A stretch of DNA of 64,000 nucleotides, taken from the NCBI RefSeq assembly GCF_013167455.1, contig NZ_CP038328.1; one strand, given 5' to 3'. Positions within the stretch are counted from its first letter, which is position 1. The number at the start of each line of letters is the position of its first letter. Below the pieces are notes generated by a model. That model was not told the origin of the DNA. It worked only from the letters and a program-made list of their open reading frames with translations, and did not search any database. Both the position numbers and the translations under genes were made by a program. Of this stretch, positions 38,347 to 54,935 are shown in pieces. This DNA is from Escherichia coli O157:H7. Its GTDB lineage: Bacteria > Pseudomonadota > Gammaproteobacteria > Enterobacterales > Enterobacteriaceae.

Positions 38347-39576
38347 TCAGGGCCAACGTTTAATGATGATGGATGTATTAATGCCGCCAAAGGCAAAGTT
38401 GTTACTCTGCAAAAACTCACAATCAACCTTGCGGGCTTCATGCATGATGTAATCCAGCGCGCCACAATTCGGGTCTGGTTTATTCAGGTTTAGCGTAGGC
38501 GCAAACCAACCTTCGCGCATCATTTGCAGACTCATCCAGGCTTCGAGCGCGCCACAGGCACCAAGCGTATGACCAAAATAACTTTTCAGCGAGGAGAGCG
38601 GCACATTATCACCGTAAATGGTTGCTGTCGCCAGACTTTCTGCCATATCACCGCGATCGGTCGCCGTACCATGCGCTGAAATATAGCCGATATCTTGTGC
38701 GCTTAACCCGGCGATTTTCAGCGATTGCTCCATACAATACTGCATGGTTTCGCGCTGCGGCTGGGTAATATGTGCCGCGTCGCAGTTAGTCGCAAAGCCG
38801 ACGATTTCACCGTAAATGGTCGCGCCGCGCGCTTTGGCGTGCTCCAGTTCTTCGAGAATGAGCGTACCTGCGCCTTCACCAATCACCAGCCCGTCGCGGT
38901 TTTCATCGAACGGTGAAGGTGTGGTTTTCGGCGCATCATTGTGCTGGCTGGTGGCGAAAAGCGTATCAAATACCGCTGCTTCTGAAGGACATAACTCTTC
39001 GGCACCACCAGCAACCATCACCGTTTGATAACCGTGGCGAATGGCTTCCCACGCATAACCGATTGCCTGGCTGCCGGAAGTACAGGCGCTGGAGGTTGGG
39101 ATCACCCGCCCGCGCAGGCCGAAAAAGAGGCCAGTATTAACGGCGGTGGTGTGCGGCATCATCTGCACATAGGTGGTGCCAGTGATGTTATTGGTGTGCT
39201 TTTCCGTCAGCATGGTGGCGAACTCGCTTACCGGGCCGGTACTGCCGGTCGATGAACCGTACGCAATGCCCGTTTCGCCGCTGGTTAATATCGGATCGCC
39301 AATCAACCCTGCCTGCTCTAACGCCAGCTCGCTGGCACGGGTCGACATTTGCGACACGCGGCCCATCGCACGGATACGCTTGCGGGTGTAGTGCTCCGGT
39401 AGCGTGAAATCATCAACAGGCGCGCCAAGCAGGGTGTGCAGCCCATCGTAGACCTGCCACTCCGGCATTTTGCGCACCGCATTTTCATATGCCAGTAAGC
39501 GTGCAGAAACGTCCTGCCAGTTTTCACCAAAGGCAGTCACGCCGCCCATTCCTGTAATCACTACGCGACGTGTCAT
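38347..39576 (-). CDS. Beta-ketoacyl-ACP synthase, FabB/FabF-like (APE cluster)
   Basis: 409 aa; active-site SSACTSG and His-containing AHGTATD and GHTLGACG motifs. Confidence 0.85.
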   Translation of the reverse strand: MTRRVVITGMGGVTAFGENWQDVSARLLAYENAVRKMPEWQVYDGLHTLLGAPVDDFTLPEHYTRKRIRAMGRVSQMSTRASELALEQAGLIGDPILTSGETGIAYGSSTGSTGPVSEFATMLTEKHTNNITGTTYVQMMPHTTAVNTGLFFGLRGRVIPTSSACTSGSQAIGYAWEAIRHGYQTVMVAGGAEELCPSEAAVFDTLFATSQHNDAPKTTPSPFDENRDGLVIGEGAGTLILEELEHAKARGATIYGEIVGFATNCDAAHITQPQRETMQYCMEQSLKIAGLSAQDIGYISAHGTATDRGDMAESLATATIYGDNVPLSSLKSYFGHTLGACGALEAWMSLQMMREGWFAPTLNLNKPDPNCGALDYIMHEARKVDCEFLQSNNFAFGGINTSIIIKRWP

Positions 39577-40304
39577 AACATCCCTCCGTTGATGGAAATA
39601 ACCTGGCGGGTGACGTAACCCGCAATATCAGACATTAAATAGCTGGCAAGCCCGGCAACTTCTTCCGCCTGGCCCATGCGTTTCATGGGGATCATCGACA
39701 TTGCCTCTTTCAGGGCGCTCTCTTCCATTTCGATCATCCCGGTATCAATAAGCCCCGGCGCGATGCAGTTGACGGTGATTTTGCGCTTCGCGAGTTCGAT
39801 AGCCAGCGCTTTTGTTGCGCCGATAATTCCGGCTTTGGCAGCGCTGTAATTCACCTGGCCGCGATTGCCCATTACGCCGGAAACCGAGGATAGCGTGATG
39901 ATGCGCCCACCCTGGCGTGCGCCGATCATCGGCATAATGCACGGCTGAATGACGTTGTAGAAACTGTCGAGGTTGGTGTGGATCACCGCATCCCAGTCGT
40001 CATCGCTTAAAGCCGGAAAAGCGGCATCGCGGGCGATCCCGGCGTTACTGACCACGCCGTACCAGGCACCGTGTTGCGCGATTTCGTGCTCCAGCACTTC
40101 CCGACACTGTTCGCGGTTTGCGACGTCGAAACTGAGCAAACGCCCGTTACCCCCATTGGCGACAATGGCATTCAGCGTTTCCTGAGCGCCTGTGGCGTCA
40201 CGGTGATAGTGAACGCCAATGTTAAAGCCGTCTGCCGCCAGTTGGCAGGCGATGGCGCGACCAATGCCTTTGCTGGCACCAGTAACCAGAACTGAACGAC
40301 TCAT
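39573..40304 (-). CDS. 3-oxoacyl-ACP reductase, SDR family (APE cluster)
   Basis: 243 aa; NAD(P) motif TGASKGIGRA, catalytic YSAAK. Confidence 0.85.
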   Translation of the reverse strand: MSRSVLVTGASKGIGRAIACQLAADGFNIGVHYHRDATGAQETLNAIVANGGNGRLLSFDVANREQCREVLEHEIAQHGAWYGVVSNAGIARDAAFPALSDDDWDAVIHTNLDSFYNVIQPCIMPMIGARQGGRIITLSSVSGVMGNRGQVNYSAAKAGIIGATKALAIELAKRKITVNCIAPGLIDTGMIEMEESALKEAMSMIPMKRMGQAEEVAGLASYLMSDIAGYVTRQVISINGGML

Positions 40305-40768
40305 CAGGACGCTCCTTGTTGAAACAGGGTGGTAAGTTCTTCCGCGGTCGGCTGGAAGGTGTTAATGCGGCCCGTCGCCTCGCCGTCGTTGATGCTGCAC
40401 TCAAAACTGCCGAAGCGATCGTCTTGCATCAGCAGTTTGACGGTAATGGTCAGTGTCTGGCCTGCGGGCAGAATGCCAGTGGTGCAAAGCAATTCACGCG
40501 CGCCCAGTATCATCCCTAACTCAATACTGTTTTTGCCCTGCTGGTGGCGATGCCAGCCAGACCAGACGCCGACGGTTTGCGCCATCAGTTCAAGGGTAAA
40601 CCAGCCGGGGAGATTGCCGTCCGGGTCGAGAAACGGTGCCAGTACGCCACTGGGCGAAACCGTCACGCGGCACACCGCGCTGTCATCGCTGACGCTCACC
40701 ACGTCTTCCAGCAGTAACATGGGCGCGTCGTGGGGCAGATAAGCGCCGGGGGATAAATAGTGGCTCAC
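40304..40768 (-). CDS. Hot-dog fold 3-hydroxyacyl-ACP dehydratase (APE cluster)
   Basis: 154 aa; FabA/FabZ-like hot-dog fold. Confidence 0.7.
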   Translation of the reverse strand: MSHYLSPGAYLPHDAPMLLLEDVVSVSDDSAVCRVTVSPSGVLAPFLDPDGNLPGWFTLELMAQTVGVWSGWHRHQQGKNSIELGMILGARELLCTTGILPAGQTLTITVKLLMQDDRFGSFECSINDGEATGRINTFQPTAEELTTLFQQGAS

Positions 40769-41943
40769 GAAACCCTCCCGAGCAGAATGCTGGCGTTATT
40801 GCCGCCAAAGGCGAAGGAATTGGACAGGATCACCGGACGTGCCAGCGGCTGCGGTTTTTCGATAATGCCACACGGTGGCAGCGTGGGATCGCGCGGCGAC
40901 AGGCTGAAGTCCTGAGCGGGCAGCGGTAAATCACGCTGTAAAATCAACATACTAATTGCCGCCTCGGTAATGCCCGCTGTGCCCAGCGTGTGTCCGGTCA
41001 AATGTTTGGTGGAGCTGCACGGTACGCGTTCGCCAAACAGGGCGTTAACCACCATTGATTCAATCTGATCGTTGAGTTGTGTGGCGGTGCCGTGCAGGTT
41101 GATATAGCCGACGTCATCTGGCGTAAGCTGCGCATCGGTCAGCGCCTGATTAATAGCGCGGATCGCTCCTTCGCCCTGCGGATGCGGGGCTGAAATATGG
41201 TAAGCGTCGCTCGATTCACCAACGCCCAGCAACGCGATGGGCTGCGGTTCCCGGGTCAGCAGCATTAGCCCCGCCCCTTCACCAATGGTGATACCTGCGC
41301 GGTCACGACCAAACGGCTGACATAAGGTTGGCGACAGCGATTCGAGGCTGTGAAAACCGTTAATCGGCATCCGGCTCAGGGTGTCTGCGCCACCCACAAT
41401 GGCGGCATCGACCAGCCCCGCTTCGATAAGCCTGCGCCCGCTGATTATCGCTCTGGCGCTGGAAGAGCAGGCGGTTGAAAGGGTATAGGCCGGGCCGTCG
41501 AGCGCCAGCCAGTGGCTGAGAAAACGCGACGGATCGCCGAGTTCCTGTTGCGCGTAGTGCCATGTGGTGCTCGGCTGCCCGTGGGTGCGCAGGTTAACGT
41601 GCGTGTCGCCTTCATGCAGGCCGGAGGTGCTGGTACCAAGCACAATCGCAATGCGCTCGCGGCCATATTTCGCAATGGCGTCATCAACCTGCGGCTGGAT
41701 CTGCGCCAGCGCCGCCAGCAGGATCTGATTGTTGCGCGAGCGGTGCGCAGCGAATTTTTCCGGGATAAGCGGAAGCTCGCCATCCACGCCAGCCAGGACC
41801 GCCTGCGGATGCCCCTGCAACCAGCCTGCGCGCGGGCGCATGCCGGGAGCAACACCGCGAGTCAGGTTGGTTGCGATTTCGTCAAGGTTATTTCCCAGGG
41901 CGTTGATCATGCCGACGGCGGAAATATAAATCATATCAGTCAC
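40765..41943 (-). CDS. Beta-ketoacyl-ACP synthase (APE cluster)
   Basis: 392 aa; thiolase fold with TACSSS active-site Cys region and HGTAT / GHTLGTAG His motifs. Confidence 0.8.
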   Translation of the reverse strand: MTDMIYISAVGMINALGNNLDEIATNLTRGVAPGMRPRAGWLQGHPQAVLAGVDGELPLIPEKFAAHRSRNNQILLAALAQIQPQVDDAIAKYGRERIAIVLGTSTSGLHEGDTHVNLRTHGQPSTTWHYAQQELGDPSRFLSHWLALDGPAYTLSTACSSSARAIISGRRLIEAGLVDAAIVGGADTLSRMPINGFHSLESLSPTLCQPFGRDRAGITIGEGAGLMLLTREPQPIALLGVGESSDAYHISAPHPQGEGAIRAINQALTDAQLTPDDVGYINLHGTATQLNDQIESMVVNALFGERVPCSSTKHLTGHTLGTAGITEAAISMLILQRDLPLPAQDFSLSPRDPTLPPCGIIEKPQPLARPVILSNSFAFGGNNASILLGRVS

Positions 41944-42520
41944 CTAAGTATTGAATGGTGATGTGGTATTTAAAGACATGCTGCTCAATGCTGATTGGCA
42001 CGCGTTTGCCCTTGCGATTCAGATAGGTGATTTCCGTGACCAGTTTGCCGCTGGCGTTACGCAGCTCGCGTTTGTCACCGTTGTCGCGAAGTGTCCATCC
42101 TGCGGGAAGTTGCGGTTGCCAGGCGCTAATCGGCCAGTGGCTGAGCATCACGTCAGCCAGTACCTGACTTGCGGGCGGTAACTGTGGGACGACGATGGAT
42201 TGCTCGGCGCGTAGCCCTTGCGCATCGTAGGTCACCAGAAACAGGCGAATGCCGACCGACGACAGCCCGGCAAGGGTGATTTTCTGATCGTCGGCGTTAA
42301 GCATCACTAACAGCGACTGGGTTTTGCCGTTGAAGCTGCCGGTCAACAGTTGCTGCGAATTGACTGCGGGTGAAATCCCTGGTGCCGGCAGCGTGATGCG
42401 CGTGCCAGGTTGCAGCCACGCCTGCGGGCGGCCTTCCTGTTCTGGTTGCGAGTGGCTACAGCCGGTGAGGATAAGCGTAGCGGTCAGGGCGAACGCTCGC
42501 CAGAATGTGGATTTGATCAT
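41936..42520 (-). CDS. Lipoprotein, DUF3261-like (APE cluster)
   Basis: 194 aa; signal peptide with lipobox LTGC. Confidence 0.65.
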   Translation of the reverse strand: MIKSTFWRAFALTATLILTGCSHSQPEQEGRPQAWLQPGTRITLPAPGISPAVNSQQLLTGSFNGKTQSLLVMLNADDQKITLAGLSSVGIRLFLVTYDAQGLRAEQSIVVPQLPPASQVLADVMLSHWPISAWQPQLPAGWTLRDNGDKRELRNASGKLVTEITYLNRKGKRVPISIEQHVFKYHITIQYLGD

Positions 42521-44835
42521 TTTTTTGTTCTCTTTTTATCGGGCATAGCCAGCGGCGAAAGCAGGAAGGCGGTGAAAATACCGCTCACCAGCACAATGCC
42601 AAAACTGCTGATGGCCTGGGTGGCGCTGAATACCAGCATACCCAGCGTCAGCAAGGTGGTGAGCATTGCCAGCGCGATCGCCAGTAGCGAAGTTAACGGT
42701 GTACCGCGCGGATTACTGAAAAACAGCGTGTAGTTGATACCGATGCCAAGCACCAGCACCAGCGCCAGCAGCGAAAAGAGATTCACCGCCTGCCCGCTCA
42801 TCGCCAGCACCGCCAGACCACAGCCCAGCGAAAGCACCGAAGGCACCAGGCTGATAAGCCCTTTGCGCCAGCCGAGACGGGCCACTGCGCCGCAGGCAAT
42901 CACTGCCAGCGCCACCAGCAACAAGCCGGTTAAGACGTAGCGGTAAAGTGCGAACAATTCATCAAAGGTGCTTTTGCGATCAACCCAGGCAATGCCGCAA
43001 GGGTAATATGTGGCGATTTCCTGCATCAACGCGCTACTTTTAACCCCTTCAACCGGCACCAGTACGCCGCTTTCGCCGTTTTCCAGCGTCAGCCACAGCA
43101 GACGCCAGCCTTCACTGGCGGGGCTTGCCAGCCATTCATCAACGTTCACTGGCATGGCGTTGAGATCCGGGTTCACTGCCGTCAGCCCGGCATTTTGCAG
43201 CGCTTTTGTTACTGTCGGGGCCGCCGTTTTCAGCAGTTGTAAATCTTCCTCCTGCCGCGCAAGGGAGTTCAGCGGAATGGTGCGGTAGTTGCTGATAAGC
43301 CCCTCTTTTTTCGCATACTCAAGTGAGGCGGTATATTTCTCCAGTCGCCGCAATGTTTGCTGTGGCGAATCGCCGTAAACCACAAACCATTTTTGATCGA
43401 CGCTCTGCCCGGTCAGGGCGGTAATGGCTTTTTCCTGCGCCAGAATATGCTGCGGTAGCGCCTGTAACTGCGAGATATCGTCATCGACGCGTAGCATTGA
43501 CATCCCCGCCAGCGAAAACAGCGCCAGCGCGACGGGCAGACCCAGCGACAGTTTTTTATTACGCCGCCACGCTGCCAGCCAGCGTAGCATCAGCGCCATC
43601 GCCGGAACCGGACGCACCGGCAGGCCACGGCACAGCCACGGATGCCAGAACAGGACGGTCAGACAGGAGGCGCTCAACCCGACGGCGGCAAAAATCGCCA
43701 TCTGGCGAATGCCGGGGAAGGGGGCGAGCATCATAATCAGATACGCCGCCACGGTGGTGAGCAGCGCCAGTAGCAAGGCATTGCGTACTTTCGCCAGGCT
43801 TTGCCACGGCGAAACGTCGTTGCCGTGAACCATCCGCTCGGTGAGATAATAGAGCGTGTAGTCAGCGGAAATGCCGATAACGCTCATGCTCATCACCAGC
43901 GTCATCAGGTGTAATTCACCGAAAATCAATAAAGTGGCGACCGTTCCCGCCAGCGCGCCGATGCCGATGGAAATCACGCAAAGCAGCAACGGGCGTAAAG
44001 AGCGGAACACCGCCACAATCAGCAATATCACCCCCAGCAGCGTAGCCACGCCCAGGGTGGAGATATCCTGCTTCGCCTGTTGGCTGGCGTAATCGCTGTA
44101 AAACACCGTGCCGCGCGAGAGCAACTGTGCCTGCGGGTAACGCGTTTTCAGATCCTTTTCCAGCGTATTCAGGGTCGTGATCAGCTGGTGGGTTTGCTGC
44201 ATATCAAACGACGATCCCGCCAGTTCGCCGTGCAGCAGATACCAGTAGTTGCCCTGGGGATCCTGCGTCACCAGCCAACCGTCCATCAGCCGCAAACGCT
44301 GGCCGTTTTTCGCCATTGCCAGCTGCGAGCCGCGCATTAACATCAGCGGATCGTTTTGCAGCTCCTTGCCGCTTACGCCGGAGAATGCGGAATAAAGCTG
44401 GGAGAGGATCCACTGTGCCTGCGCTTCGCCGCCGTTTTGCAGGCGGGCGCGGGTGTTGGGGTCAATCAGGCCGTTGCGATGCTGCCAGAAAAACGCTCCC
44501 CACGCCTGCTGGCTGGCGGCATCCATTGGCCCTTTAACGTCGCCGAGCGCAGCGGATTTTTGCAGCAGCGTCAGCCACTCCTGAGCGACCAAAGGATTAG
44601 CCTCTTTACCGGGGCTGACCAGCCACACCAGTTGGCGGTCAAGACGCTGCATAAAGCCGTCATTCAGCGCCGGAGGAATATCGCCCATCGTCTGTTTGGG
44701 TAACATAGCCAGCACGCTACTGTTCAGCCGTGATTGCGGCAGCAGGATCAGCAACGCCACCGCCATGACCAGGCAGACTAGCCCCCATAACAGCGCGGGG
44801 CGTTTACTGGGCGGCAAAACGTTGGCGTTCGTCAT
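42517..44835 (-). CDS. MMPL/RND-superfamily membrane exporter (APE cluster)
   Basis: 772 aa; two TM bundles separated by large periplasmic domains. Confidence 0.75.
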   Translation of the reverse strand: MTNANVLPPSKRPALLWGLVCLVMAVALLILLPQSRLNSSVLAMLPKQTMGDIPPALNDGFMQRLDRQLVWLVSPGKEANPLVAQEWLTLLQKSAALGDVKGPMDAASQQAWGAFFWQHRNGLIDPNTRARLQNGGEAQAQWILSQLYSAFSGVSGKELQNDPLMLMRGSQLAMAKNGQRLRLMDGWLVTQDPQGNYWYLLHGELAGSSFDMQQTHQLITTLNTLEKDLKTRYPQAQLLSRGTVFYSDYASQQAKQDISTLGVATLLGVILLIVAVFRSLRPLLLCVISIGIGALAGTVATLLIFGELHLMTLVMSMSVIGISADYTLYYLTERMVHGNDVSPWQSLAKVRNALLLALLTTVAAYLIMMLAPFPGIRQMAIFAAVGLSASCLTVLFWHPWLCRGLPVRPVPAMALMLRWLAAWRRNKKLSLGLPVALALFSLAGMSMLRVDDDISQLQALPQHILAQEKAITALTGQSVDQKWFVVYGDSPQQTLRRLEKYTASLEYAKKEGLISNYRTIPLNSLARQEEDLQLLKTAAPTVTKALQNAGLTAVNPDLNAMPVNVDEWLASPASEGWRLLWLTLENGESGVLVPVEGVKSSALMQEIATYYPCGIAWVDRKSTFDELFALYRYVLTGLLLVALAVIACGAVARLGWRKGLISLVPSVLSLGCGLAVLAMSGQAVNLFSLLALVLVLGIGINYTLFFSNPRGTPLTSLLAIALAMLTTLLTLGMLVFSATQAISSFGIVLVSGIFTAFLLSPLAMPDKKRTKK

Positions 44836-45409
44836 CGGTCAGTTGCGCTGGCGTCAGTTGATGTTGGGTAAGAGCAATATCGGTGCGATCGCCCTGTTTA
44901 TCATTAAGTTGAATGCTCTCCAGATAGGTTTTCCCGGCGAGATCGATGGTGTTGAAAATTTTATCCAGCGGCGTGGTGGTCGGCGTCAGGCGCAGCGTCC
45001 AGCGGCCTTCGCCTTTGTCAGCAAATTCGACGCGGAAGTTTTGTTCCAGCACTTTGCGATCGGCCTGGAACAACGCGCGCAGCAGGTGGTTAAACTGGAA
45101 CATCTGCGGGTTGTTTTCTGCCGTGATGATTTGCGGCGGCTGACCGTTGATCACCTGCACCATGCGTTTATCGTCCAGTAATAGTTGCATGGGGAACGGT
45201 GAGGTTTGATCCCACAACAGCCCCTGGTCGCGGGCGATCAACATCTGGCCCTGAGATCGCAGCGGCTGCGGCAGATCTTTAATCGTCCGGGTTTGATCGA
45301 AATGGGCGCGGATCACCGGTTGTTCGGTAAAGCGTTGCTGAAGATCGTCCAGGGTCAGGGCGCTCACAAACGGGCTAATCAGCAGCGCCAGCAGCGGTAA
45401 AAATTTCAT
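44804..45409 (-). CDS. LolA-like periplasmic lipoprotein-carrier protein (APE cluster)
   Basis: 201 aa; signal peptide MKFLPLLALLISPFVSA; LolA-like. Confidence 0.7.
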   Translation of the reverse strand: MKFLPLLALLISPFVSALTLDDLQQRFTEQPVIRAHFDQTRTIKDLPQPLRSQGQMLIARDQGLLWDQTSPFPMQLLLDDKRMVQVINGQPPQIITAENNPQMFQFNHLLRALFQADRKVLEQNFRVEFADKGEGRWTLRLTPTTTPLDKIFNTIDLAGKTYLESIQLNDKQGDRTDIALTQHQLTPAQLTDDERQRFAAQ

Positions 45410-45828
45410 GGTTTGACTCCCATGCGTTCAAACAGAATATCGGGGCTGACAAAGCACAGTTCGCGACTTTGCTCGTCGACCGCGACCTGAATGGTGTATC
45501 CGGTGGTGGCGCGTTTGCCCGTTTCGGCATCGAAAATCTGATAGCCAATCCGCAGACGGTTTTCGAACTCTTCGATATGCGCACGCACGCGGATGCGTTG
45601 CTCAAAGGTGAGGGCGTGGCGATATTTCACCCGCGCATCGACCACTGGCCACAAATAACCGGACTCTTTCATTTGCCGATAGCCGTAATTGAACTGGTTG
45701 AGCAGCGCCTCGCGAGCCACTTCAAAGTAGCGAAAATAGTTACCGTGCCAGGCCACGCCCATCATATCGACGTCGTGAAAGGGAATGGTCAGCTCGACTT
45801 CTGCGGTAAATCGGGGATCGTTCAGCAC
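45406..45828 (-). CDS. Hot-dog (4HBT/YbgC-like) acyl thioesterase (APE cluster)
   Basis: 140 aa; FHDVDMMGVAWHGNYFRYFE thioesterase motif region. Confidence 0.75.
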   Translation of the reverse strand: MLNDPRFTAEVELTIPFHDVDMMGVAWHGNYFRYFEVAREALLNQFNYGYRQMKESGYLWPVVDARVKYRHALTFEQRIRVRAHIEEFENRLRIGYQIFDAETGKRATTGYTIQVAVDEQSRELCFVSPDILFERMGVKP

Positions 45829-45831
45829 CCT

Positions 45832-47508
45832 TTACTCCTTGTCCTGAATTTCCGGCAGTTGCCAGAAATCGAAAAAATTAAACCAGTCGAGAGGCGACTG
45901 GAGCGCGTAATGTTCCAGACGCGCGGCGTAATGATCGATAGCGTTTTGCAGCGCCTGTTGGCGTTCGCCGCGCGGCAGCTGCAGTGGGTCGGCAAAGCTT
46001 TCGCAGTGAATATGCAGCTTGCCGTGCTGGCGCAGGGCGAAAATCAGATTCACCGGGCAGCGCAAAATAGAGGCGAGAATAAACGGCCCCTGTGGGAAAG
46101 GCGCAGGCTGGCCCATAAACGAACTCCAGCAGACGCGCCAGTCGCCGCCGCGTTGCGGGTTGACGGCGATGCGGTCACCGACAATCGCCACCCATTCGCC
46201 GTTATCCAGCTTCTCTTTCAGCAGGATGGCGGTTTCTGGGCCGATATCTGTTACCGGCATCAGGTTAATGCCTGCCTGAGGAGCCATCTCCTGCATTATC
46301 TGTTTAAAGCGTTGGGCGTTTTCGCTAAACACCAGCGCGTTAATGGTTTTGTAGCCCTGAATTTTTGCCAGCGCCCGGCACACTTCCACATCGCCAAGAT
46401 GCGAGGCCAGCAGCAATTTGCCGCGCGGATCGCGGACGTCAAGCGCTGCTTCTGCGCCTGGCGCAAACAGCACATCACGCCCTGGTTGTAGCTCGCCGCG
46501 CCAGCTGGCGATTTTGTCGAGCATGGCATTACCGAAACGTAGAAAGTGCTGATAGCTGTTGAGTTTTGCCGCCTGTGGTTGATGCTGTCGTACACGGGCG
46601 AGCCAGTCTTGCGACGCTTTGCGCGCACGAGAAGCAGTGAGCCAGTAGACGCCCACCACCGGGTAAAGCAGCGCGCTAAACGCCGTTCTTCCCAGCAGAC
46701 GCCAGACCAGCAGCATCAGGCGCATTCCCCATAATCCTTTCACTTCACTCTGCCGCGCCCAGTGGCAGGAAGAGCGGCGCATCAGCAGTGAAGGAATACG
46801 CGGCAACATGCCGAAAAACAGACGCGTGTGCATGAGCGAGATGCGGACGTTATCTTTCAGGGCATCAAAATGCGAAAGCCCGTCCAGTGGATAGGTGACG
46901 CGGGTCGGCACGAAATAGCTGGTATTTCCCTGCCAGTAGAGGCGCACCATCACTTCGGTGTCGAAATCCATCCGCTTGCCGATGGTGGCGTGTTTTGCCA
47001 GTTGCAGCGTTGGCGCAACCGGATAAACGCGAAAACCGCACATGCTGTCTTTCAGTTGCAGGGAGAGCGTTTCGATCCATACCCAGACGTGGGTGACCCA
47101 GCGCCCGTAAAGCCGTGAGCGGGGGATGGAGTCATCGTAAATTGGCTGGCCGGAGATCAGTGCCGCAGGTTGTTGTTCAGCGAGAGCCAGCAGTTTAGGG
47201 ATATCTTCAATCGCGTGCTGACCGTCAGCATCCACCTGCACCGCATGGCTGAACCCTGCGTCTGCCGCTGCCTGTAAGCCACGCATCACCGCCGCGCCTT
47301 TGCCTGCGTTTTCTGCCAGGCGAATTAAGGTCACGCCAGGCTGTTCGGCAAGCAGACTGTCCAGTTGCTGTTGTGTGGTGGCATCGCTGCCGTCATCCAC
47401 CACAATACAGGGCAGATTAAATGGCTTAAGACGCGCCAGCACGCCCGGCATCATCGCGCCGTGGTTGTAGCAGGGTATCAACACGCAGGGAGAAAAGTTT
47501 ACCGACAT
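45832..47508 (-). CDS. Family-2 glycosyltransferase fused to a C-terminal acyltransferase-like domain (APE cluster)
   Basis: 558 aa; N-terminal GT-A fold motifs (VVDDGSD, VDADGQH); C-terminal half resembles lipid-A-type late acyltransferases. Confidence 0.65.
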   Translation of the reverse strand: MSVNFSPCVLIPCYNHGAMMPGVLARLKPFNLPCIVVDDGSDATTQQQLDSLLAEQPGVTLIRLAENAGKGAAVMRGLQAAADAGFSHAVQVDADGQHAIEDIPKLLALAEQQPAALISGQPIYDDSIPRSRLYGRWVTHVWVWIETLSLQLKDSMCGFRVYPVAPTLQLAKHATIGKRMDFDTEVMVRLYWQGNTSYFVPTRVTYPLDGLSHFDALKDNVRISLMHTRLFFGMLPRIPSLLMRRSSCHWARQSEVKGLWGMRLMLLVWRLLGRTAFSALLYPVVGVYWLTASRARKASQDWLARVRQHQPQAAKLNSYQHFLRFGNAMLDKIASWRGELQPGRDVLFAPGAEAALDVRDPRGKLLLASHLGDVEVCRALAKIQGYKTINALVFSENAQRFKQIMQEMAPQAGINLMPVTDIGPETAILLKEKLDNGEWVAIVGDRIAVNPQRGGDWRVCWSSFMGQPAPFPQGPFILASILRCPVNLIFALRQHGKLHIHCESFADPLQLPRGERQQALQNAIDHYAARLEHYALQSPLDWFNFFDFWQLPEIQDKE

Positions 47509-47852
47509 AGGCGGATCTTCCCGCTACTGGCGGTGTGGCGGGCGTCACCGTCGTGACGCTGATAGCTAAAGCTCAGAATCTGGCGTTCTTCCTGCCAGTT
47601 AAGCGCGAGCGTGACGCGGTTTTCCGGCAGCAACGGAGACTGGAATTTTATGTTCTGAATGGAGTGAAAACGCCAGCCAGGCGCGAGCAGATTGAGCGCG
47701 TAGCTCATCGCCCAGTCGATTTGCGCAACTCCTGGGAGTAATGGTTGCACGGCAAAATGACCGCGAAACCAGAACAGATCCGCCCTGAGATGCAGAACAA
47801 TTTCAAGGTGATTCGTTTGTGCCTGATGGCGCTCGATTTCATGGGGCTTCAT
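47499..47852 (-). CDS. Hot-dog dehydratase, FabA-like (APE cluster)
   Basis: ORF frame 47499..47882; internal Met at 47852 preferred (14-nt overlap with the upstream gene), 47882 possible. Confidence 0.6.
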   Translation of the reverse strand: MKPHEIERHQAQTNHLEIVLHLRADLFWFRGHFAVQPLLPGVAQIDWAMSYALNLLAPGWRFHSIQNIKFQSPLLPENRVTLALNWQEERQILSFSYQRHDGDARHTASSGKIRLCR

Positions 47853-49200
47853 GAAATAACTCCTGTAATTGCGCATAGACACGCTTGTTCATACTGTTTA
47901 CTGGCATTTCATCAATAACGCGCCAGTAACGCGGAATAGCAACTGGCTCCAGCGTCGGGCGCAGTAAACGCCGCCAGGTCATTTCCTGGCTATGCCCGCC
48001 GCCGTTCTGCCATTGCAGATGAGCTTCGTCATCCAGCACCAGCAAAACGCCTATGCTCTGACGCCCGCCGCGCGTAACGGGAACTGCCGCCGCCTCGCGA
48101 ATGCCGTCCAGCGCCAGTAGACGTTGTTCTACTTCCTGGAGTGAAATACGTTTTTCTTCAATCTTAACGATGCGCCCACGACGCCCCATCAGATGGAACT
48201 GACCATCTTCGCTAAACTGTAAGATATCGTCGAGTAACATGCCGTTATCTTCCGCTATCAGCGGTGAAAAGAGGCGAAAGGCATCGCCTTCGGCCTGGAA
48301 CTGCATACCTGGGAGGGGTAGCCAGCGGCGTTGCTCTTGTTCGCGGTAGCGCCAGGCGATGACGCCAGTTTCCGTGCTGCCGTAGATTTCATCAGGCCAG
48401 ACGCGCAGCCAGCTCGCGGTATGTTGTACATCCTGCCACGGCAGCTCACCGCCAGCAGAGAGAAGCACCTGAACGGGTGGCGGAGAAAGCTGGGTATCCA
48501 GGCGCTTCAAAAATGCCGGGCTGCTGATGAAGATATAGCGATGCTGATGACTCAACGCGGCAAACTGTTCGACATACCAGAGCATGGCGGCGTGCAGCGG
48601 TAATCCCAACGCCATGGGCAGGAAAACGCGAAAAGTCAGGCCGTACAAATGCTGCGGCAATACGGAACCGACGACACGACAACCCGCCAGACGTGCGCCT
48701 AATCGTTCAGCCAGCAGTTCTGCTTCACGATCCAGCAAATGAACAGGTTTAATCGCCCGTTTCGGCTGTCCCGTGGAACCGGAGGTAAACAGCTCGATAA
48801 AAGCCTCTGGCGCTATAGCGGCAAAGGTGAAGGATTGTGTCGCGATTTGTGGAGAACTTGCTACCAACAGCAATGAACCTTGCCAGTTAAGTTCGCTGTC
48901 GCTAAGCACACCATCAAAAAGTTCACGTTGCTCGTTAAGCTGGATAACACGGTTATGCCCCGGAAGCACCGGCGTTTTTCCGGCGTGTAGCGTGGCGAGC
49001 AGGGCAACGATAAACAGATAGCTGTTCTCAAAGCACAGCGCCCAGCGTTCACCCGGCTGTTGCTGCAAGCGGCAGATAAGTTGCGCGACATCGTGACGCA
49101 AATCGCCCAGCGTCCAGGTACTTTCGTTCAGCCACGCAATGGGTGTGTCATCAGGGCGTGGCGCAGTCAGCCAGCGTGCAAGCGGTAAGGTCTGCTTCAT
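47839..49200 (-). CDS. AMP-dependent synthetase/ligase (acyl/aryl-carrier-protein ligase) (APE cluster)
   Basis: ORF frame 47839..49239; Met at 49200 gives an ATGA overlap with the upstream gene; adenylate-forming motifs TSGSTGQPK and YGSTETG. Confidence 0.8.
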   Translation of the reverse strand: MKQTLPLARWLTAPRPDDTPIAWLNESTWTLGDLRHDVAQLICRLQQQPGERWALCFENSYLFIVALLATLHAGKTPVLPGHNRVIQLNEQRELFDGVLSDSELNWQGSLLLVASSPQIATQSFTFAAIAPEAFIELFTSGSTGQPKRAIKPVHLLDREAELLAERLGARLAGCRVVGSVLPQHLYGLTFRVFLPMALGLPLHAAMLWYVEQFAALSHQHRYIFISSPAFLKRLDTQLSPPPVQVLLSAGGELPWQDVQHTASWLRVWPDEIYGSTETGVIAWRYREQEQRRWLPLPGMQFQAEGDAFRLFSPLIAEDNGMLLDDILQFSEDGQFHLMGRRGRIVKIEEKRISLQEVEQRLLALDGIREAAAVPVTRGGRQSIGVLLVLDDEAHLQWQNGGGHSQEMTWRRLLRPTLEPVAIPRYWRVIDEMPVNSMNKRVYAQLQELFHEAP

Positions 49201-49778
49201 GCGCGATCTCTTTTCATCACCTGACGGCGCAGCAGCCATTCACCAGCCATTAACGTCCCCATCAACAAATAAGCAATCATGCCGTTCCAGGCGGTCCATA
49301 ACGACATATCGGCATAAAGCGCGGTAAAGAGGGCAATTCCACCGTTAATGATGAAAAAGCCGCACCAGATTTGCGTGACGTGGCGGGTATAGCGCACGCC
49401 CTTTTCCGGGAGGTCTGGCTCCTGCAACCGCGCCAGCCGCTCAACTATCGGCATTGCCGACCACAGCGAACCGCCAAAAACCGCCAGCATGACCGCGTTA
49501 ACCACTACCGGGTAAAACAGCAGTAGCTGGTGCGTTTTCAACATAAAGCTGGCGACACATAATGCGATGCCCACGACAGCGACGAGTTGCGTGACGGCTT
49601 GTAAAGGCCCCGCCTGGCGACGGGTCTGGCGCAGACGCAACAAAAGCAGCAACGCCATTAGCGGTAACAGCCAGTGCAGGCCGTTATGCGCTAAGCCAAA
49701 CCAAATCACAAACGGCCAGGCGAGCAGCAATAATCCAGTCAGCAGCTTAATCATCGGTAGCGAGCGAATGCCCGACAT
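49197..49778 (-). CDS. Integral membrane protein of unknown function (APE cluster)
   Basis: 193 aa; about 5 predicted TM helices. Confidence 0.6.
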   Translation of the reverse strand: MSGIRSLPMIKLLTGLLLLAWPFVIWFGLAHNGLHWLLPLMALLLLLRLRQTRRQAGPLQAVTQLVAVVGIALCVASFMLKTHQLLLFYPVVVNAVMLAVFGGSLWSAMPIVERLARLQEPDLPEKGVRYTRHVTQIWCGFFIINGGIALFTALYADMSLWTAWNGMIAYLLMGTLMAGEWLLRRQVMKRDRA

Positions 49779-49782
49779 CAGA

Positions 49783-50034
49783 TCAGGCTTCTTGTAGCAG
49801 GCGTTCTACAGCCTCGACGACATCCTGGACTGTACGCACTGCTTTAAACTCTTCCGGCTTGATTTTCTTACCGGTTTTCTTTTGCAGGTGCACAATCATG
49901 TCAACGGCGTCGATGCTGTCCAGTTCCAGATCTTCGTACAGGCGCGTTTCAGGTTTGATGTCCTGCGGATCGATTTCAAACAGCTTAACCAGCAGGGCTG
50001 AGACTTCCTGATAGACGGTTTGTTGTTCTGTCAT
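49783..50034 (-). CDS. Acyl carrier protein (APE cluster)
   Basis: 83 aa; phosphopantetheine-attachment motif LELDSIDAVDM. Confidence 0.85.
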   Translation of the reverse strand: MTEQQTVYQEVSALLVKLFEIDPQDIKPETRLYEDLELDSIDAVDMIVHLQKKTGKKIKPEEFKAVRTVQDVVEAVERLLQEA

Positions 50035-50045
50035 GATGGCTTTCC

Positions 50046-50303
50046 TCAGGCACGTTGCGCAGCAATGAAAGAGGCCAGAGTGGCGACGGAGAAAAAGTGC
50101 TGACGCATCTCTTCGCTTTCCGCAGAGAGCACGATGCCGTACTCATTTTTTACTGCCAGTCCCAGTTCCAGGGCATCGATAGAGTCCAGCCCTAAACCGT
50201 CGCCAAACAGCGGCGCGTCGGTATCGATATCATCAGGCGTCAACTCGTCCAGATTGAGGGTGCTGATGATGAGGTTTTTAATTTCCAGATAAAGCGCTTG
50301 CAT
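50046..50303 (-). CDS. Acyl carrier protein (APE cluster)
   Basis: 85 aa; motif LGLDSIDALEL. Confidence 0.85.
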   Translation of the reverse strand: MQALYLEIKNLIISTLNLDELTPDDIDTDAPLFGDGLGLDSIDALELGLAVKNEYGIVLSAESEEMRQHFFSVATLASFIAAQRA

Positions 50304-51099
50304 TATTTATTCCTGAGAGAGGTAAACAACCTTGTTGTAATTGAAGCAAAAGATGCCGGTTTAACTGCCTTGCTGCCAGCGCCGGTTCTTGTGAAGTTGC
50401 ATCGTAAAATTTATTGATTTCAACCCGACCATGGACTGCAACCGTAAAAAACGGCCGGTCAGGTGGAACGTCATACCATTTACTTTGTTTATCCAGCAGA
50501 TGCTCGCTACAGCCGATTGTCACGATGCGTAAATCGCTGGCGCAGCGCACGGCAATATTCGCCGCCCCGCGCTGCAGCGTCATTTTTTCACCGGGCTTCG
50601 TTCGTGTGCCTTCGGGGAAAATCAGGATAGTGTCACCCTGTGCCAGTCGCTGTTGGCAGCGGGGTAACAGAGTTTCAGCTTCGCTGTTGATTAAATAATC
50701 TGTCGCCCGCACGACGCCGCCAAGAAAAGGATTTTTTAACAGCGCGCTTTTCACCAGGCAGTCAGTTTCTGGCATGACTGACGCCAGCAGCACGTAATCG
50801 ATCAGCGTGGGATGATTGGCTACGACGAGGCAACCGCGTTCCTGATGTAAGATTTCAGCGCCATCAATACGATAATCCAGTACGCCAAGCCCTTTCGCGA
50901 CAGTTAAAAACAGGCGAAAACTGGCGGCAATGCTGCGACGCGCCAAACGACGGCGGCGGGAAGTATCCCACACCAAAACTAACAATATGTTAAACCACAC
51001 GACAGAAAGCAGCAGGCCGCCGAGACCAAACAGGGCAAAACATAACCCGGTCATGACCAGTCGCCAGGTCCACTCCAGACGTGACATCAGCTTACTCAT
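50278..51099 (-). CDS. Lysophospholipid (1-acyl-sn-glycerol-3-phosphate-type) acyltransferase (APE cluster)
   Basis: ORF frame 50278..51117; Met at 51099 gives an ATGA overlap with the upstream gene; acyltransferase motifs VVANHPTLIDY and FPEGTRT. Confidence 0.75.
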   Translation of the reverse strand: MSKLMSRLEWTWRLVMTGLCFALFGLGGLLLSVVWFNILLVLVWDTSRRRRLARRSIAASFRLFLTVAKGLGVLDYRIDGAEILHQERGCLVVANHPTLIDYVLLASVMPETDCLVKSALLKNPFLGGVVRATDYLINSEAETLLPRCQQRLAQGDTILIFPEGTRTKPGEKMTLQRGAANIAVRCASDLRIVTIGCSEHLLDKQSKWYDVPPDRPFFTVAVHGRVEINKFYDATSQEPALAARQLNRHLLLQLQQGCLPLSGINNASALSGN

Positions 51100-51842
51100 C
51101 TGTGGCTCCAGCGCCATTGCACGCGCTCGCCAGGCAGTGAAAATGTGTCTACATTTTGTAAATAGTGCTGTAAAAACAACATGCTTTGCGGCAGTGTTGT
51201 TTCATTGCCCGCAATGGCTGACTGCGTTTCACATTGCCAGTCATCGCCAGCTTCAATCACCAGCGCGACGGCGTACGGCCAGGTCGGCATTTCTGATGGC
51301 AGTTGTGGGTGATAAAACTCGGGCAGGAAACCGTCAAAATCGACCATCAGCACGCGCTGGTATCCCGCTTGTAGCAGGCTAAGCACTTCACACAAACCTT
51401 GCTGGAAACTATCGCGACCAGCCGAAAGCGATGACGAAACGCTCGGCTGTTTGGCCGCAATGGTCAGGTTACCCACGGAAGAGTTGTGTACGGAGAGCGC
51501 GAAGTCCGTCGGAGAAAGCGCCTGTTCGGTTGCCAGTGCATGAACAATGCGGTAATTGCGCTCCAGTTCGCCATGACGACTGGTATACAAAACGGCGTCT
51601 GGTTGATGGCGGCGTAGCATTGCCAGACCGCATTCAACAGCCAGTTTGCTCCCGGAGCTGAGGCGGCGGGCGGTCATCATTGGCAGTTCACTTAATTTTG
51701 CCAACGGTGCTGTCGGGTCAATTGCCTGAGGCTGACGTGACCACTCCTGCCATTGCAGCGTTTCACTAAGTCCAGGCGCTCTTGCCTGCCAGTCGAGAAT
51801 GTTTAATGCAAATTTCATCAACGCGCGCCCGCGGTAAACCAA
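51096..51842 (-). CDS. Ketosynthase-like partner / chain-length-factor-like protein (APE cluster)
   Basis: 248 aa; thiolase-like N-terminal region without an obvious active-site Cys motif. Confidence 0.55.
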   Translation of the reverse strand: MVYRGRALMKFALNILDWQARAPGLSETLQWQEWSRQPQAIDPTAPLAKLSELPMMTARRLSSGSKLAVECGLAMLRRHQPDAVLYTSRHGELERNYRIVHALATEQALSPTDFALSVHNSSVGNLTIAAKQPSVSSSLSAGRDSFQQGLCEVLSLLQAGYQRVLMVDFDGFLPEFYHPQLPSEMPTWPYAVALVIEAGDDWQCETQSAIAGNETTLPQSMLFLQHYLQNVDTFSLPGERVQWRWSHR

Positions 51843-51858
51843 AATTATTAAGTGACGA

Positions 51859-52926
51859 TTATTTCTTTTGGCATATCAAAAGTGTATGCCCAACGCCTAA
51901 ATTATCGTGGCGCTCTGCTACCTGGAATCCTGCTTTATTCAGATAGTCGTAAAATTTCTCTGCACTATAGAAACGGCTGTTACCGTTTGCCATGCAGGTA
52001 AAATAAAGTGAGGACGCGTTCAGGCTAAACGATGCTGCTTCAAACCGCTGCGCATCCCAGAACAACTCCATGATGCAAACTTTTGCGCCAGGCTTCATTA
52101 CGCTGGCAATTTTGCTGAGTATGCTAATTATTTGTTCGGGTGAAAAACAGTCTAAAAATTGGCTCATCCACCAGATATCAGCCTCGCCCGGTAATGGGGC
52201 ATCGCTTAGCATATCCACCGCATGGAAATCTATGCGATCAGAAAAACCTGCATTCGCGATATTTTCTTTCGCTAGTACGATTTGTTGTGGCAGATCTAAT
52301 AACGTAACGGCGATGTTTTCATTGTATTTGCAGCAACGCAAAGCCCACTTACCCGTATTGCCGCCTACATCGTACAATGTTGTGGGGTTGTTGGCGAATA
52401 CATAAGGCAGTGCGGCGTTAAATGCGCCATCTGAATAGTAATGATCAAACGCAAACCAGCTTTCACGAGCGGCGTCTGGTAATTGCGAAAGTGCCGGATA
52501 TATCGTCGACCAGTCGCCAAATACTTTTAACCCGGAAGGTTTTCCTTCATTGAGTGAATCGGCGAGGAAGAAGAGCCCCTGGTAACAGACATCCTGGGTG
52601 AAATCCATATTCACGCGAGTCATAGTGTCATGCAGGAGGTAATGACCGATTTTCGCCAGGTAATAAATTCCCTCTTTACAGGTAATAATTCGCCCGCTTA
52701 AGCCCATATCTAACAGAACGCTGGTAGCATATTCGTTGATATGGCTATGTTCGGTGATATCAGCCAGCGTTGCGCCATGTTTGCCTTGCCGATCCAGATA
52801 TGAAAGTACACCCGCATTACGTAGGCAGAGTGCTGTTTGAAAAAGCATAGGGGCAAAGGCAATGCGTTGAGCTTCGGTAATCGCATCCAGTGCGCTAAGA
52901 GAATCCTGTTCGTACATGTTGGGCAC
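51859..52926 (-). CDS. SAM-dependent O-methyltransferase (APE cluster)
   Basis: 355 aa; class I SAM-binding motif DVGGNTGKWA; N-terminal dimerisation-like region. Confidence 0.75.
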   Translation of the reverse strand: MPNMYEQDSLSALDAITEAQRIAFAPMLFQTALCLRNAGVLSYLDRQGKHGATLADITEHSHINEYATSVLLDMGLSGRIITCKEGIYYLAKIGHYLLHDTMTRVNMDFTQDVCYQGLFFLADSLNEGKPSGLKVFGDWSTIYPALSQLPDAARESWFAFDHYYSDGAFNAALPYVFANNPTTLYDVGGNTGKWALRCCKYNENIAVTLLDLPQQIVLAKENIANAGFSDRIDFHAVDMLSDAPLPGEADIWWMSQFLDCFSPEQIISILSKIASVMKPGAKVCIMELFWDAQRFEAASFSLNASSLYFTCMANGNSRFYSAEKFYDYLNKAGFQVAERHDNLGVGHTLLICQKK

Positions 52927-52985
52927 AACCTGTTAAGAGGGAATTAAATTATTATCGGACCGCAACGGCCCGACTTTAGGAAGAA

Positions 52986-53363
52986 TTATAAATCTGCGCC
53001 CGCTGACAAATTCAGTTGAATATCTTTGTCGAGATTGCGGACCCAGCGATTGTAGTTTTTATGAATTTGTCCGCCTGACGCTTGTAGGTTCTGGCTATTT
53101 TCATAATTGATATCGTAGCTGGATGCCGTGTAGTTAATGCGTATTTCCGCTGAATGATCGCGTGACTGTTGACGTGCTTTAATTATGCCTTGTCCGGCTT
53201 CGGACATAATCCATTTGCGTTCAACGCCAGCTTTCAGAATCGCTTTTTTCACTTGTTCCTGGGTATGACCAGCGCTGACGGTTGAGTGAACCTGATCAAT
53301 TGGCGCAGTACGCGCGCAACCTGCTAAAGCACCCACAACAGCAATAGCCGCAAACCATTTCAT
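52986..53363 (-). CDS. Small lipoprotein of unknown function at the edge of the APE island
   Basis: ORF frame 52986..53375; start likely Met 53363 (MKWFAAIAVVGALAGC...), lipobox LAGC. Confidence 0.55.
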   Translation of the reverse strand: MKWFAAIAVVGALAGCARTAPIDQVHSTVSAGHTQEQVKKAILKAGVERKWIMSEAGQGIIKARQQSRDHSAEIRINYTASSYDINYENSQNLQASGGQIHKNYNRWVRNLDKDIQLNLSAGADL

Positions 53364-53708
53364 GTAATGTCTCATTAGAACCCCATTAAAGTATTGTTTT
53401 TACGAGTAAAGCAAGTTTTAACTGTAATTGCTGGCATCACTATTCTTTATTTAGAGAAAAAATTACTTGTGAGATAAGTCAGTAAGTGCACATCAGAGTA
53501 AAAATCTCTGAAATGACTAAATTACTGCCAGCAGGGACCAACTATAAGTGAGTGAGAAAAATGAGGCAATAAAAATAACACAATGTTATCAGTGCATTCT
53601 TTGAGAAGGATTTAATCGCTATTCGGCGTTTATATATATTTGACTTAAGGAATGGTTTTTTTAAATTAATTTTCTGAATAATGTTTCATCATTTCCTCAA
53701 ATCAAATG

Positions 53709-53741
53709 GCCACTGTTAGATAAACGGTGGCCATTGCCTGC
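53709..53741 (-). terminator. Hairpin just downstream of yhhT
   Basis: aaatggccactgttagataaacggtggccattgcc: stem tggccac / gtggcca. Confidence 0.5.
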
Positions 53742-53754
53742 TCAGGAGGTGCTA

Positions 53755-54804
53755 TTAACCCGGTAACCGACTTTTCGGTCTGCCCGGCCCCAGTAAAATC
53801 GCCAGTTTGCTGCCGCCTTTCGTCGTTTCCATCCAGATTTTACACACGCTGGTTAATGGCACCGAAAGTAGCATCCCTACCGGGCCGAGCAGCCATCCCC
53901 AAATTAACAATGAAAGAAATACCACCATGGTGGACATCCCCAGGCGATGGCCCATCATCCGTGGTTCTAAAATATTGCCGATGACCATATGGACCACTAA
54001 AAACAATGCGCCGACCAGAATACATTCGTAAACACCATTAAACAGCAGCACCTGAATCATTGGCGGTACGGCGGAAATTACCGCGCCGATATTGGGCACG
54101 TAGTTAAGCAAAAACGCCAGTACTGCCCACATCAGCGCAAACTGTACCCCCATCAGCTCCAGCCCCAGCCAGACGATGACACCCGTCCATAAACTGAGTA
54201 GCGTCTTTAACGCCAGATAATGCGAAACGCCTTTAAGTGCGCGGTGTAATCCCGCGATGTGAATCTGTGGGTTATTCAGCGCAAAACGCATTTTGTAAGG
54301 GACGTGGCGCACTTCAAACAGCATAAAAACTACGGTCATCACCAGCAAAAGCACGCTCGCCATTGCCCCGGAAAGCCCGGTCATTAGCGCTGTGGTGAAG
54401 GTAACCACTTTTTCCGAGTCCATCCGCTGCAGCATTCGCTCCGGCGACATATGCAAATTAAGAAAAGGCAACATCTCCTGCAATTTAAAAAGTTTGCGCG
54501 TCAGCTCCTTATTAAACTTCGGCAGCATAGAGATAAATTCGTTAAACGATGCCGCCAGTACGCCGACCAGCGCGGTTAGTGCGATCAGCATCACCACCAC
54601 TACAATCGTAATGGCAACGGGGCGTTGTACTCCCCGACGAATAAACCAGGTGACGAGCGGGTTGAGGACGATGGCAAAAAACAGCGCCAGTAACAGCTGC
54701 ACAATGATATCTGCCGCTGCGTGAATGCCCGCGAGGATCACTACCAGCGAGGCCAGCTTGAGCAGAATGTGCATGCCCGTTTTATCGGGTTGAGGGGTTT
54801 CCAT
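53755..54804 (-). CDS. yhhT: AI-2E (PerM/YdiK) family transporter
   Basis: ORF frame 53755..54885; start at internal ATG 54804 (METPQPDKTGMHILLK...), giving 349 aa. Confidence 0.85.
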   Translation of the reverse strand: METPQPDKTGMHILLKLASLVVILAGIHAAADIIVQLLLALFFAIVLNPLVTWFIRRGVQRPVAITIVVVVMLIALTALVGVLAASFNEFISMLPKFNKELTRKLFKLQEMLPFLNLHMSPERMLQRMDSEKVVTFTTALMTGLSGAMASVLLLVMTVVFMLFEVRHVPYKMRFALNNPQIHIAGLHRALKGVSHYLALKTLLSLWTGVIVWLGLELMGVQFALMWAVLAFLLNYVPNIGAVISAVPPMIQVLLFNGVYECILVGALFLVVHMVIGNILEPRMMGHRLGMSTMVVFLSLLIWGWLLGPVGMLLSVPLTSVCKIWMETTKGGSKLAILLGPGRPKSRLPG

Positions 54805-54935
54805 TGGGGCTTCCTTGTGACTTTTTGTATTAAGTGTAGCGGGAGTCACGACGGCAATATTCTGATTCTTACTGCTGATTTTCACGTCAGCACGTGGTAA
54901 AAATGAAACACTGTTGTAAAAATGTGGTGATCCTC

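Follow-up and report, generated by a model that had tools for sequence, protein, structure and literature searches.

apeA and its AT-rich leader as part of the aryl polyene cluster of O-island 138 in Escherichia coli O157:H7

According to published reports, aryl polyene (APE) clusters form the most widespread biosynthetic gene cluster family of Gram-negative bacteria, and they contribute to oxidative stress resistance and biofilm formation in pathogens. One such cluster lies in a 64,000-nt stretch of the E. coli O157:H7 genome (RefSeq assembly GCF_013167455.1, contig NZ_CP038328.1; the whole stretch is called the window here and all coordinates are positions in it unless a locus is named), where it constitutes O-island 138 (OI-138) between acpT and yhhT. 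At the yhhT edge of the island stand a small gene for a predicted lipoprotein and an AT-rich spacer upstream of it (together 52986–53754). Do these belong to the island or to the chromosomal backbone? An original prediction, made from the sequence letters, had allowed both answers and regarded the gene as an orphan. The comparisons described below strongly support the assignment of both the gene, identified as apeA, and its spacer to the APE cluster and not to the backbone.

The identity of the gene was established by comparison with the APE cluster of E. coli CFT073. The coding sequence (52986..53375, minus strand; taken from an ATG-start open reading frame (ORF), the RefSeq annotation and homology to CFT073 ApeA) encodes a precursor lipoprotein of 129 aa, which aligned with ApeA of CFT073 (c1204, WP_000833175.1) at 64% identity over 129/129 aa and with no gap (E = 3e-68). 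WP_000833175.1 is encoded by the first gene of the 18-gene CFT073 APE cluster in NC_004431.1, and apeA/c1204 is labelled "lipoprotein" as the first gene of the CFT073 APE_Ec cluster in Table 1 of Johnston et al. (2021, PMC8253772). Because this full-length identity is to a head gene already named apeA, the supposed orphan is a divergent allele of apeA, and the alignment showed the window lipoprotein to be ApeA, the ortholog of c1204. Like its CFT073 counterpart (PMC8253772), the window gene is the first of 18 genes in the same order, and both proteins are of 129 aa and carry a lipobox and the motifs W55 and IHKNYNRWVRNLDKDIQ. The gene is thus already known: it has been named, its island is known and its deletion has been published.

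Co-inheritance within E. coli was surveyed as the presence or absence of three markers in 5,426 complete genomes. The first marker, comprising apeA, the spacer and the junction with the end of yhhT, was whole in 569 genomes; the other matching genomes aligned only from position 53759 onward, i.e. inside yhhT. The O157-type apeH cassette was likewise present in 569 of the 5,426, and the acpT–apeR junction was whole in 569, all others matching acpT only. Since the three counts coincide, apeA and the entire AT-rich spacer are gained or lost with the APE cluster. The island begins at the base after the yhhT stop codon, and in K-12, which has no island, acpT and yhhT are just 54 bp apart. The K-12 gap (L002, 3943–3996) holds an unrelated filler of ~34 nt, and the yhhT stop codon is TGA in K-12 vs TAA here.

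The scan across species used one genome per species and a reduced alignment instead of the more diverse 54-sequence one; 327 relatives were returned, and 80 loci of distinct species were kept. The apeA homolog adjoined apeB or apeC in 80/80 of these loci. In 78 of them apeC was found downstream of apeA and on its strand; one locus ended after apeB, and in a Serratia locus (1/80) apeA was divergent from its APE cluster. yhhT was the upstream neighbour of the apeA homolog in only 28 of the 80, and Pantoea allii had the same cluster head on a different backbone (MFS, DUF386 and DHDPS genes). The apeB methyltransferase gene was missing from 26 of the 80 loci, where apeA was kept directly before apeC, so apeA is retained more consistently than this tailoring enzyme.

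Distant single-domain homologs (32–42% identity; Alphaproteobacteria and metagenomes) were also found inside APE clusters. Two tandem apeA paralogs stand directly ahead of apeC in Ferrovibrio, and the homolog in a Holosporales metagenome-assembled genome is immediately before apeC. On one metagenome contig an APE cluster is split into two divergent halves with the homolog between them, and on another the homolog is at the end of an APE cluster containing a halogenase. Two distant representatives were on contigs of ~1.4–1.5 kb, which carry no neighbour genes able to show APE linkage. By gene neighbourhood, apeA was thus shown to head APE clusters across Enterobacterales and distant Proteobacteria.

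The gene was found at this position without an APE cluster in none of the 5,426 E. coli genomes, and in all 80 other species it adjoined APE genes. Because a gene at the yhhT site without APE genes was never seen, apeA is assigned to the cluster; of the two origins entertained in the original prediction, the island origin stands on the E. coli marker counts and the 80 species loci, and the backbone origin was rejected. One locus in the species set (L048) is labelled "Chryseobacterium sp. 18061"; its yhhT is enterobacterial (83% aa identity), and apeA and an APE cluster come after it. It is close to the locus of Citrobacter sp. 18056 (L052) from the same project, and its assembly is probably mislabelled or mixed.

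The window and CFT073 clusters differ at the head. The two apeA alleles are only ~56–68% identical in DNA while the rest of the clusters is 93–100% identical, and the upstream spacers could not be aligned. The insertion sites differ as well: acpT–yhhT here, and in CFT073 a pathogenicity island beside cdiBAI. O157-type and CFT073-type clusters hold this 93–100% DNA identity except in two cassettes. One comprises apeH, which encodes the starter-unit acyl-ACP (acyl carrier protein) synthetase, with its edges (47470–49570, 58–75% identical), and the other comprises the 5' end of apeB with apeA (52570–53375, 56–81% identical). Among the E. coli genomes, 569 carried the O157-type apeA and 256 carried only an allele 60–80% identical to it in DNA. 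Two divergent cassettes inside otherwise 93–100% identical clusters suggest cassette replacement by recombination, and the divergent ApeH might take a different aryl starter unit.

The start codon of apeA calls for a correction. RefSeq carries the same gene as WP_001301470.1 ("lipoprotein", 125 aa, 52986–53363), starting at the internal ATG at 53363. The upstream region was aligned for 14 loci of Escherichia, Citrobacter, Klebsiella and Superficieibacter. Thirteen related loci keep both the first ATG (53375) and the Shine-Dalgarno sequence before it, and their codon 5 is ATT. In the window the Shine-Dalgarno-like sequence, identified in the same alignment, is GGGG (53381..53384, minus strand), 6 nt upstream of the 53375 ATG; in the relatives it reads GGGAG. 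Because the upstream ATG and Shine-Dalgarno are conserved and the relatives have ATT in place of the internal ATG, the alignment favours the 129-aa start: the true start is probably this ATG, and the RefSeq start probably falls four codons short (53363–53375). The original prediction had combined a length of 125 aa, which is that of the RefSeq model, with the coordinates 52986–53375, which are those of the 129-aa ORF favoured by the alignment.

That the protein is a predicted lipoprotein, as originally proposed, can be read from its N-terminus, MRHYMKWFAAIAVVGALAG-C, with a positively charged n-region, a hydrophobic h-region and a match to the lipobox pattern [LVI][ASTVI][GAS]C at Cys20. The signal peptide, ending in the lipobox L-A-G-C, occupies 53316..53375 (minus strand; read from the sequence), the codon of Cys20 being 53316–53318. 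Cys20 is at least 90% conserved, nearly invariant, in the 54-homolog alignment. The residue at +2 is Ala and not Asp, so the inner-membrane retention signal is lacking; the CFT073 allele has Val at this position. Lipidation and sorting by the Lol system are inferred from the lipobox and the +2 rule.

After the signal peptide follows a mature domain of 109 residues that is hydrophilic and basic (grand average of hydropathy −0.76, isoelectric point 9.35). The AlphaFold2 model consists of a low-confidence N-terminal helix and then a folded domain, predicted to be a small alpha+beta fold of the KA1/BamC-like type (helix-grip, beta-alpha-beta4-alpha), with structural matches of only 5–16% sequence identity. 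As modelled, this fold would indicate a small interaction or lipid-headgroup module and not an enzyme. BamC, an outer-membrane lipoprotein of E. coli with helix-grip domains, is only 7–11% identical to ApeA, with no detectable sequence homology; unlike BamC, ApeA has a single domain of ~105 residues, and no BAM genes lie near apeA. The KA1 domains of the MARK, SAD, Chk1 and AMPK-alpha kinases differ in being eukaryotic and cytoplasmic, and at 5–14% identity the likeness is an analogy of fold only. Scans of ApeA and 54 homologs against Pfam and NCBIfam returned only signal-peptide noise (Lpp/OprI, BPTD_2524 at E = 0.02, LptM), and a profile search of PDB sequences with ApeA gave nothing below E = 0.06. 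Membership of the KA1 family by sequence was rejected, since neither ApeA nor the 54 homologs had a profile match beyond noise. Membership of the LolA/LolB family was rejected as well, as neither a LolA/LolB fold nor a Pfam match to LolA, LolB or DUF3261 was found.

The family to which ApeA belongs is large. With clustering at 50% identity, an exhaustive HMMER search returned 2,325 representatives when the limit was E <= 1e-3 and 666 when it was E <= 1e-10; a second profile search against the protein database gave mainly the same close enterobacterial matches again. The original view of a gene with no recognisable family therefore holds in that no Pfam or NCBIfam model covers it, and fails in that it has more than 2,300 cluster-level relatives and the published name ApeA. 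Most members are ~130 aa long and some, with two copies of the domain, are ~260 aa. Two tryptophans, W55 and W111, do not vary among 54 diverse members, which also show strong conservation of the C-terminal motif I-H-x-N-Y-N-x-W-x-x-N-L-D-x-D-I-Q.

The two tandem paralogs of Ferrovibrio (L092, 10001–10390 and 10439–10828) are 28% identical to each other, and fused two-domain proteins of ~260 aa occur in three further loci (L094, L096 and L097, each from 10001). The occurrence of tandem and fused two-domain forms suggests that ApeA may work as a pair of domains. In L097 the fused gene is followed downstream by acyltransferase, LolA and reductase genes. Fused forms of the Halarcobacter type had no APE genes within 10 kb, so the ApeA domain is not exclusive to APE clusters.

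The spacer between yhhT and apeA (53376..53754) had been described as AT-rich and about 380 bp long, which was borne out: it measures 379 bp at 33.2% GC, and its composition, the E. coli genome comparison and the K-12 junction mark it as wholly island-specific. The window has 52% GC and the island 55%, and only 1.7% of the 379-nt intervals in the 64 kb are as AT-rich. Elsewhere in the window, low-GC stretches (<= 36% in 379-nt intervals) were seen at 131–531 and at 16471–19931, the latter ~3.5 kb long. A search of the spacer and its flanks against Rfam gave no match at E up to 1. The spacer contains no ORF of more than 27 aa, save one running into yhhT on the opposite strand, and a search for repeats gave nothing notable beyond a hairpin near yhhT. 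This hairpin (53705..53735, minus strand; inverted-repeat scan), which has 13-nt arms and a 5-nt loop and is followed by the U-rich tail UUUGAUUUG, lies directly 3' of the yhhT stop codon and is probably the yhhT terminator, located in island-specific DNA.

In the 14-locus alignment the spacer is unconserved beyond ~45 nt upstream of the apeA start, even among genomes that share the yhhT neighbour. Within this otherwise unconserved sequence, a consensus scan combined with the alignment located a sigma-70 promoter-like site, TTGCCT-17 nt-TATAGT (53541..53569, minus strand), whose counterpart in five Citrobacter and Klebsiella indica loci reads TTGATA-17 nt-TATACT in the alignment. If apeA is transcribed from this candidate promoter, its leader would be ~160 nt long.

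A second signal lies on the other side of the gene. In the 68-nt gap between apeA and apeB, reading and folding of the sequence identified a GC-rich hairpin, UCGGGCC-GUUGC-GGUCCGA (52954..52974, minus strand), with a 9-bp stem in the fold (−15.4 kcal/mol). In 25 E. coli/Citrobacter-type sequences 94.5% of the cells were paired, 4/8 pairs changed on both sides, and the covariation score was reached by 0/500 shuffles. In the 60 nt that follow the apeA stop codon, the median minimum free energy over 82 loci was −18 kcal/mol; the median z was −2.9, and z fell below −2 in 68% of the loci. Other genera have different, unrelated hairpins after apeA, some of them canonical terminators, and clear U-tracts occur at this position in Atlantibacter, Brenneria, Xenorhabdus and others. 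In O157 the tail after the hairpin, AUAAUAAUUUAAUU, is a poor U-tract, and the consensus scan for terminators passed over the site, so termination here, if any, would be partial. The hairpin might act in partial termination, in attenuation or in stabilising the mRNA. The proposal that apeA reads into the APE cluster is plausible; because the hairpin between apeA and apeB is conserved, covarying and, in several genera, like a terminator, apeA may not simply do so.

The remainder of the cluster provides the setting in which ApeA has to be understood. Its other 17 genes, apeR to apeB, occupy 38347..52917 (minus strand; RefSeq, Table 1 of PMC8253772, the CFT073 record and Pfam matches), in the gene order of CFT073 c1186–c1203. 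On the upstream side of apeA lies yhhT, which encodes an AI-2E transporter (53755–54885, minus strand; ORF list, Pfam and RefSeq annotation). Downstream of apeA come the O-methyltransferase gene apeB and then genes for a chain-length-factor ketosynthase, an acyltransferase and two carrier proteins. The published CFT073 order (PMC8253772) is apeA (lipoprotein), apeB (methyltransferase), apeC (ketosynthase/chain-length factor), apeD (acyltransferase), apeE and apeF (carrier proteins), apeG, apeH (acyl-ACP synthetase), apeI, apeJ (glycosyltransferase), apeK (thioesterase), apeL (LolA-like), apeM (RND transporter), apeN (DUF3261), apeO, apeP, apeQ and apeR, and the order in the window is identical to this 18-gene list. 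ApeN, which is LolB-like and for which a place at the outer-membrane end of a lipid shuttle has been proposed, has a lipobox LTG-C with Cys21 (41936–42520), and ApeL has a Sec signal peptide (44804–45409). From the lipoboxes of ApeA and ApeN and the Sec signal of ApeL, the cluster encodes two lipoproteins and one periplasmic LolA-like protein.

What ApeA does has been approached genetically with the CFT073 allele. The apeA deletion strain had near wild-type pigment and had lost the late-eluting mature APE-lipid (PMC8253772). It accumulated early carboxylic acids, as did the apeB and apeK deletion strains, and the authors proposed that ApeA acts with ApeL and ApeN in outer-membrane localisation (PMC8253772). 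The suggestion of the original prediction that the lipoprotein serves envelope localisation of the pigment is therefore a hypothesis already put forward by Johnston et al. (2021). In Xenorhabdus doucetiae the end product is a glycerol-phosphate-GalNAc lipid bearing the APE and a conjugated fatty acid; in that work an arabinose promoter was inserted before apeB, and only apeB to apeR were deleted one by one (10.1101/2020.12.19.423268).

Taken jointly, these results are best explained if apeA, at the head of the APE cluster, encodes an outer-membrane accessory of APE-lipid export that is expressed semi-independently of the rest, a reading to which we give a probability of about 0.6. ApeA most probably is anchored in the outer membrane, faces the periplasm and assists the part of the pathway that exports and inserts the lipid. 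For its localisation, partners and activity, we infer that ApeA would be processed by Lgt, LspA and Lnt and then, because its +2 residue is Ala, sorted by Lol to the periplasmic face of the outer membrane. There its 109-residue KA1/BamC-like domain, probably acting as a pair of domains, would serve as a non-enzymatic accessory of the envelope half of the pathway. Its partners may be ApeM (the inner-membrane RND/MMPL transporter), ApeL (periplasmic, LolA-like) and ApeN (the LolB-like lipoprotein), with which it would receive, insert or stabilise the APE lipid in the outer membrane. Transcription of the gene would start at a promoter of its own within the AT-rich spacer, and the hairpin after its stop codon would partly uncouple its expression from that of apeB to apeR.

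Several points weigh against this reading of ApeA as an export accessory. The Halarcobacter-type two-domain relatives sit away from APE genes. The KA1/helix-grip fold is common and says nothing on function, its structural matches to ApeA being 5–16% identical. The O157 hairpin is without a proper U-tract. X. doucetiae made APE lipids with apeA left uninduced (10.1101/2020.12.19.423268), so that ApeA is either not strictly needed at induced levels or sufficiently supplied by basal expression. Finally, the high-performance liquid chromatography (HPLC) profile of the apeA deletion resembles that of the apeB deletion and could reflect a polar effect on apeB.

A fuller version of the same reading, which we hold only tentatively and regard as less probable than its core, would make ApeA a large, profile-less family of KA1/BamC-like lipoproteins working in pairs, tandem or fused, and the missing outer-membrane docking or insertion factor for APE lipids arriving from ApeM, ApeL and ApeN. 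The promoter of the gene and the conserved terminator-like hairpin would control ApeA dosage independently of the enzymes, and the two divergent E. coli alleles would stem from cassette exchange or from selection on a surface-proximal protein.

The polar effect just named, taken further, becomes the best-surviving alternative: ApeA would be dispensable for the APE-lipid, with its real role elsewhere, for example in surface display, biofilm or host interaction. The HPLC profiles of the two deletions were described as comparable (PMC8253772), the apeA deletion lies directly upstream of the conserved hairpin and the apeB translation start, and X. doucetiae yields APE lipids with only apeB to apeR induced. 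The authors, however, used in-frame scarred deletions to avoid polarity (PMC8253772), deletion of apeB in X. doucetiae led to desmethyl lipids and not to immature acids (10.1101/2020.12.19.423268), and the retention of apeA in the 26 of 80 loci without apeB argues for a role tied to the cluster. We consider this explanation unlikely, though it keeps some weight.

The main rival for the activity of the protein itself, a little less probable again, is a part in regulation or sensing: like RcsF or NlpE, ApeA would be an outer-membrane lipoprotein that couples envelope state or pigment load to the expression or activity of the pathway, and no part of the transport machinery. It would account for an apparently separate transcription unit with a long AT-rich leader and for a metabolite profile that changes on loss of ApeA while the chromophore remains; the domain is small, non-enzymatic and of a protein-interaction type, and apeA is absent from the list of RpoS-responsive OI-138 genes. 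Against this, no regulator or signalling partner is encoded beside apeA, its tight linkage to structural genes is more typical of a stoichiometric component, and no homology to known sensor lipoproteins was found.

Johnston et al. also raised the alternative that the aryl polyene is attached to ApeA itself, as or on its lipid anchor. The presence of a lipoprotein gene and Lol-like genes in one cluster fits such a conjugate, but the X. doucetiae product is a lipid and not a protein conjugate and was made without inducing apeA, and the apeA deletion strain stays pigmented; with the lipid structure and the pigmented strain, this very improbable possibility was rejected. Least credible is that apeA is a backbone gene or an unrelated passenger merely beside the cluster: its own promoter-like site, the hairpin after its stop codon and a deletion that leaves pigmentation intact would suit a passenger, but island-less E. 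coli are without the gene and the whole spacer, as the three equal counts of 569 show, the gene adjoins APE genes in 80/80 species on several different backbones, its distant homologs lie inside rearranged APE clusters, and the marker counts and species adjacency refute a backbone origin for practical purposes.

The observation that began this work was real and correctly described, and it is an ordinary one: a known gene in a known island. The analysis adds comparative evidence that the gene belongs to the cluster, assigns a fold to its product, gives a probable correction of the start codon, and describes a conserved promoter-like site and an intercistronic hairpin. The apeA gene and its AT-rich leader are thereby settled as part of the APE cluster, and the ApeA family is shown to be large and profile-less, with a defined predicted fold. 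For the design of apeA deletions or expression constructs, the apeA–apeB hairpin and the likely mis-annotated start both matter.
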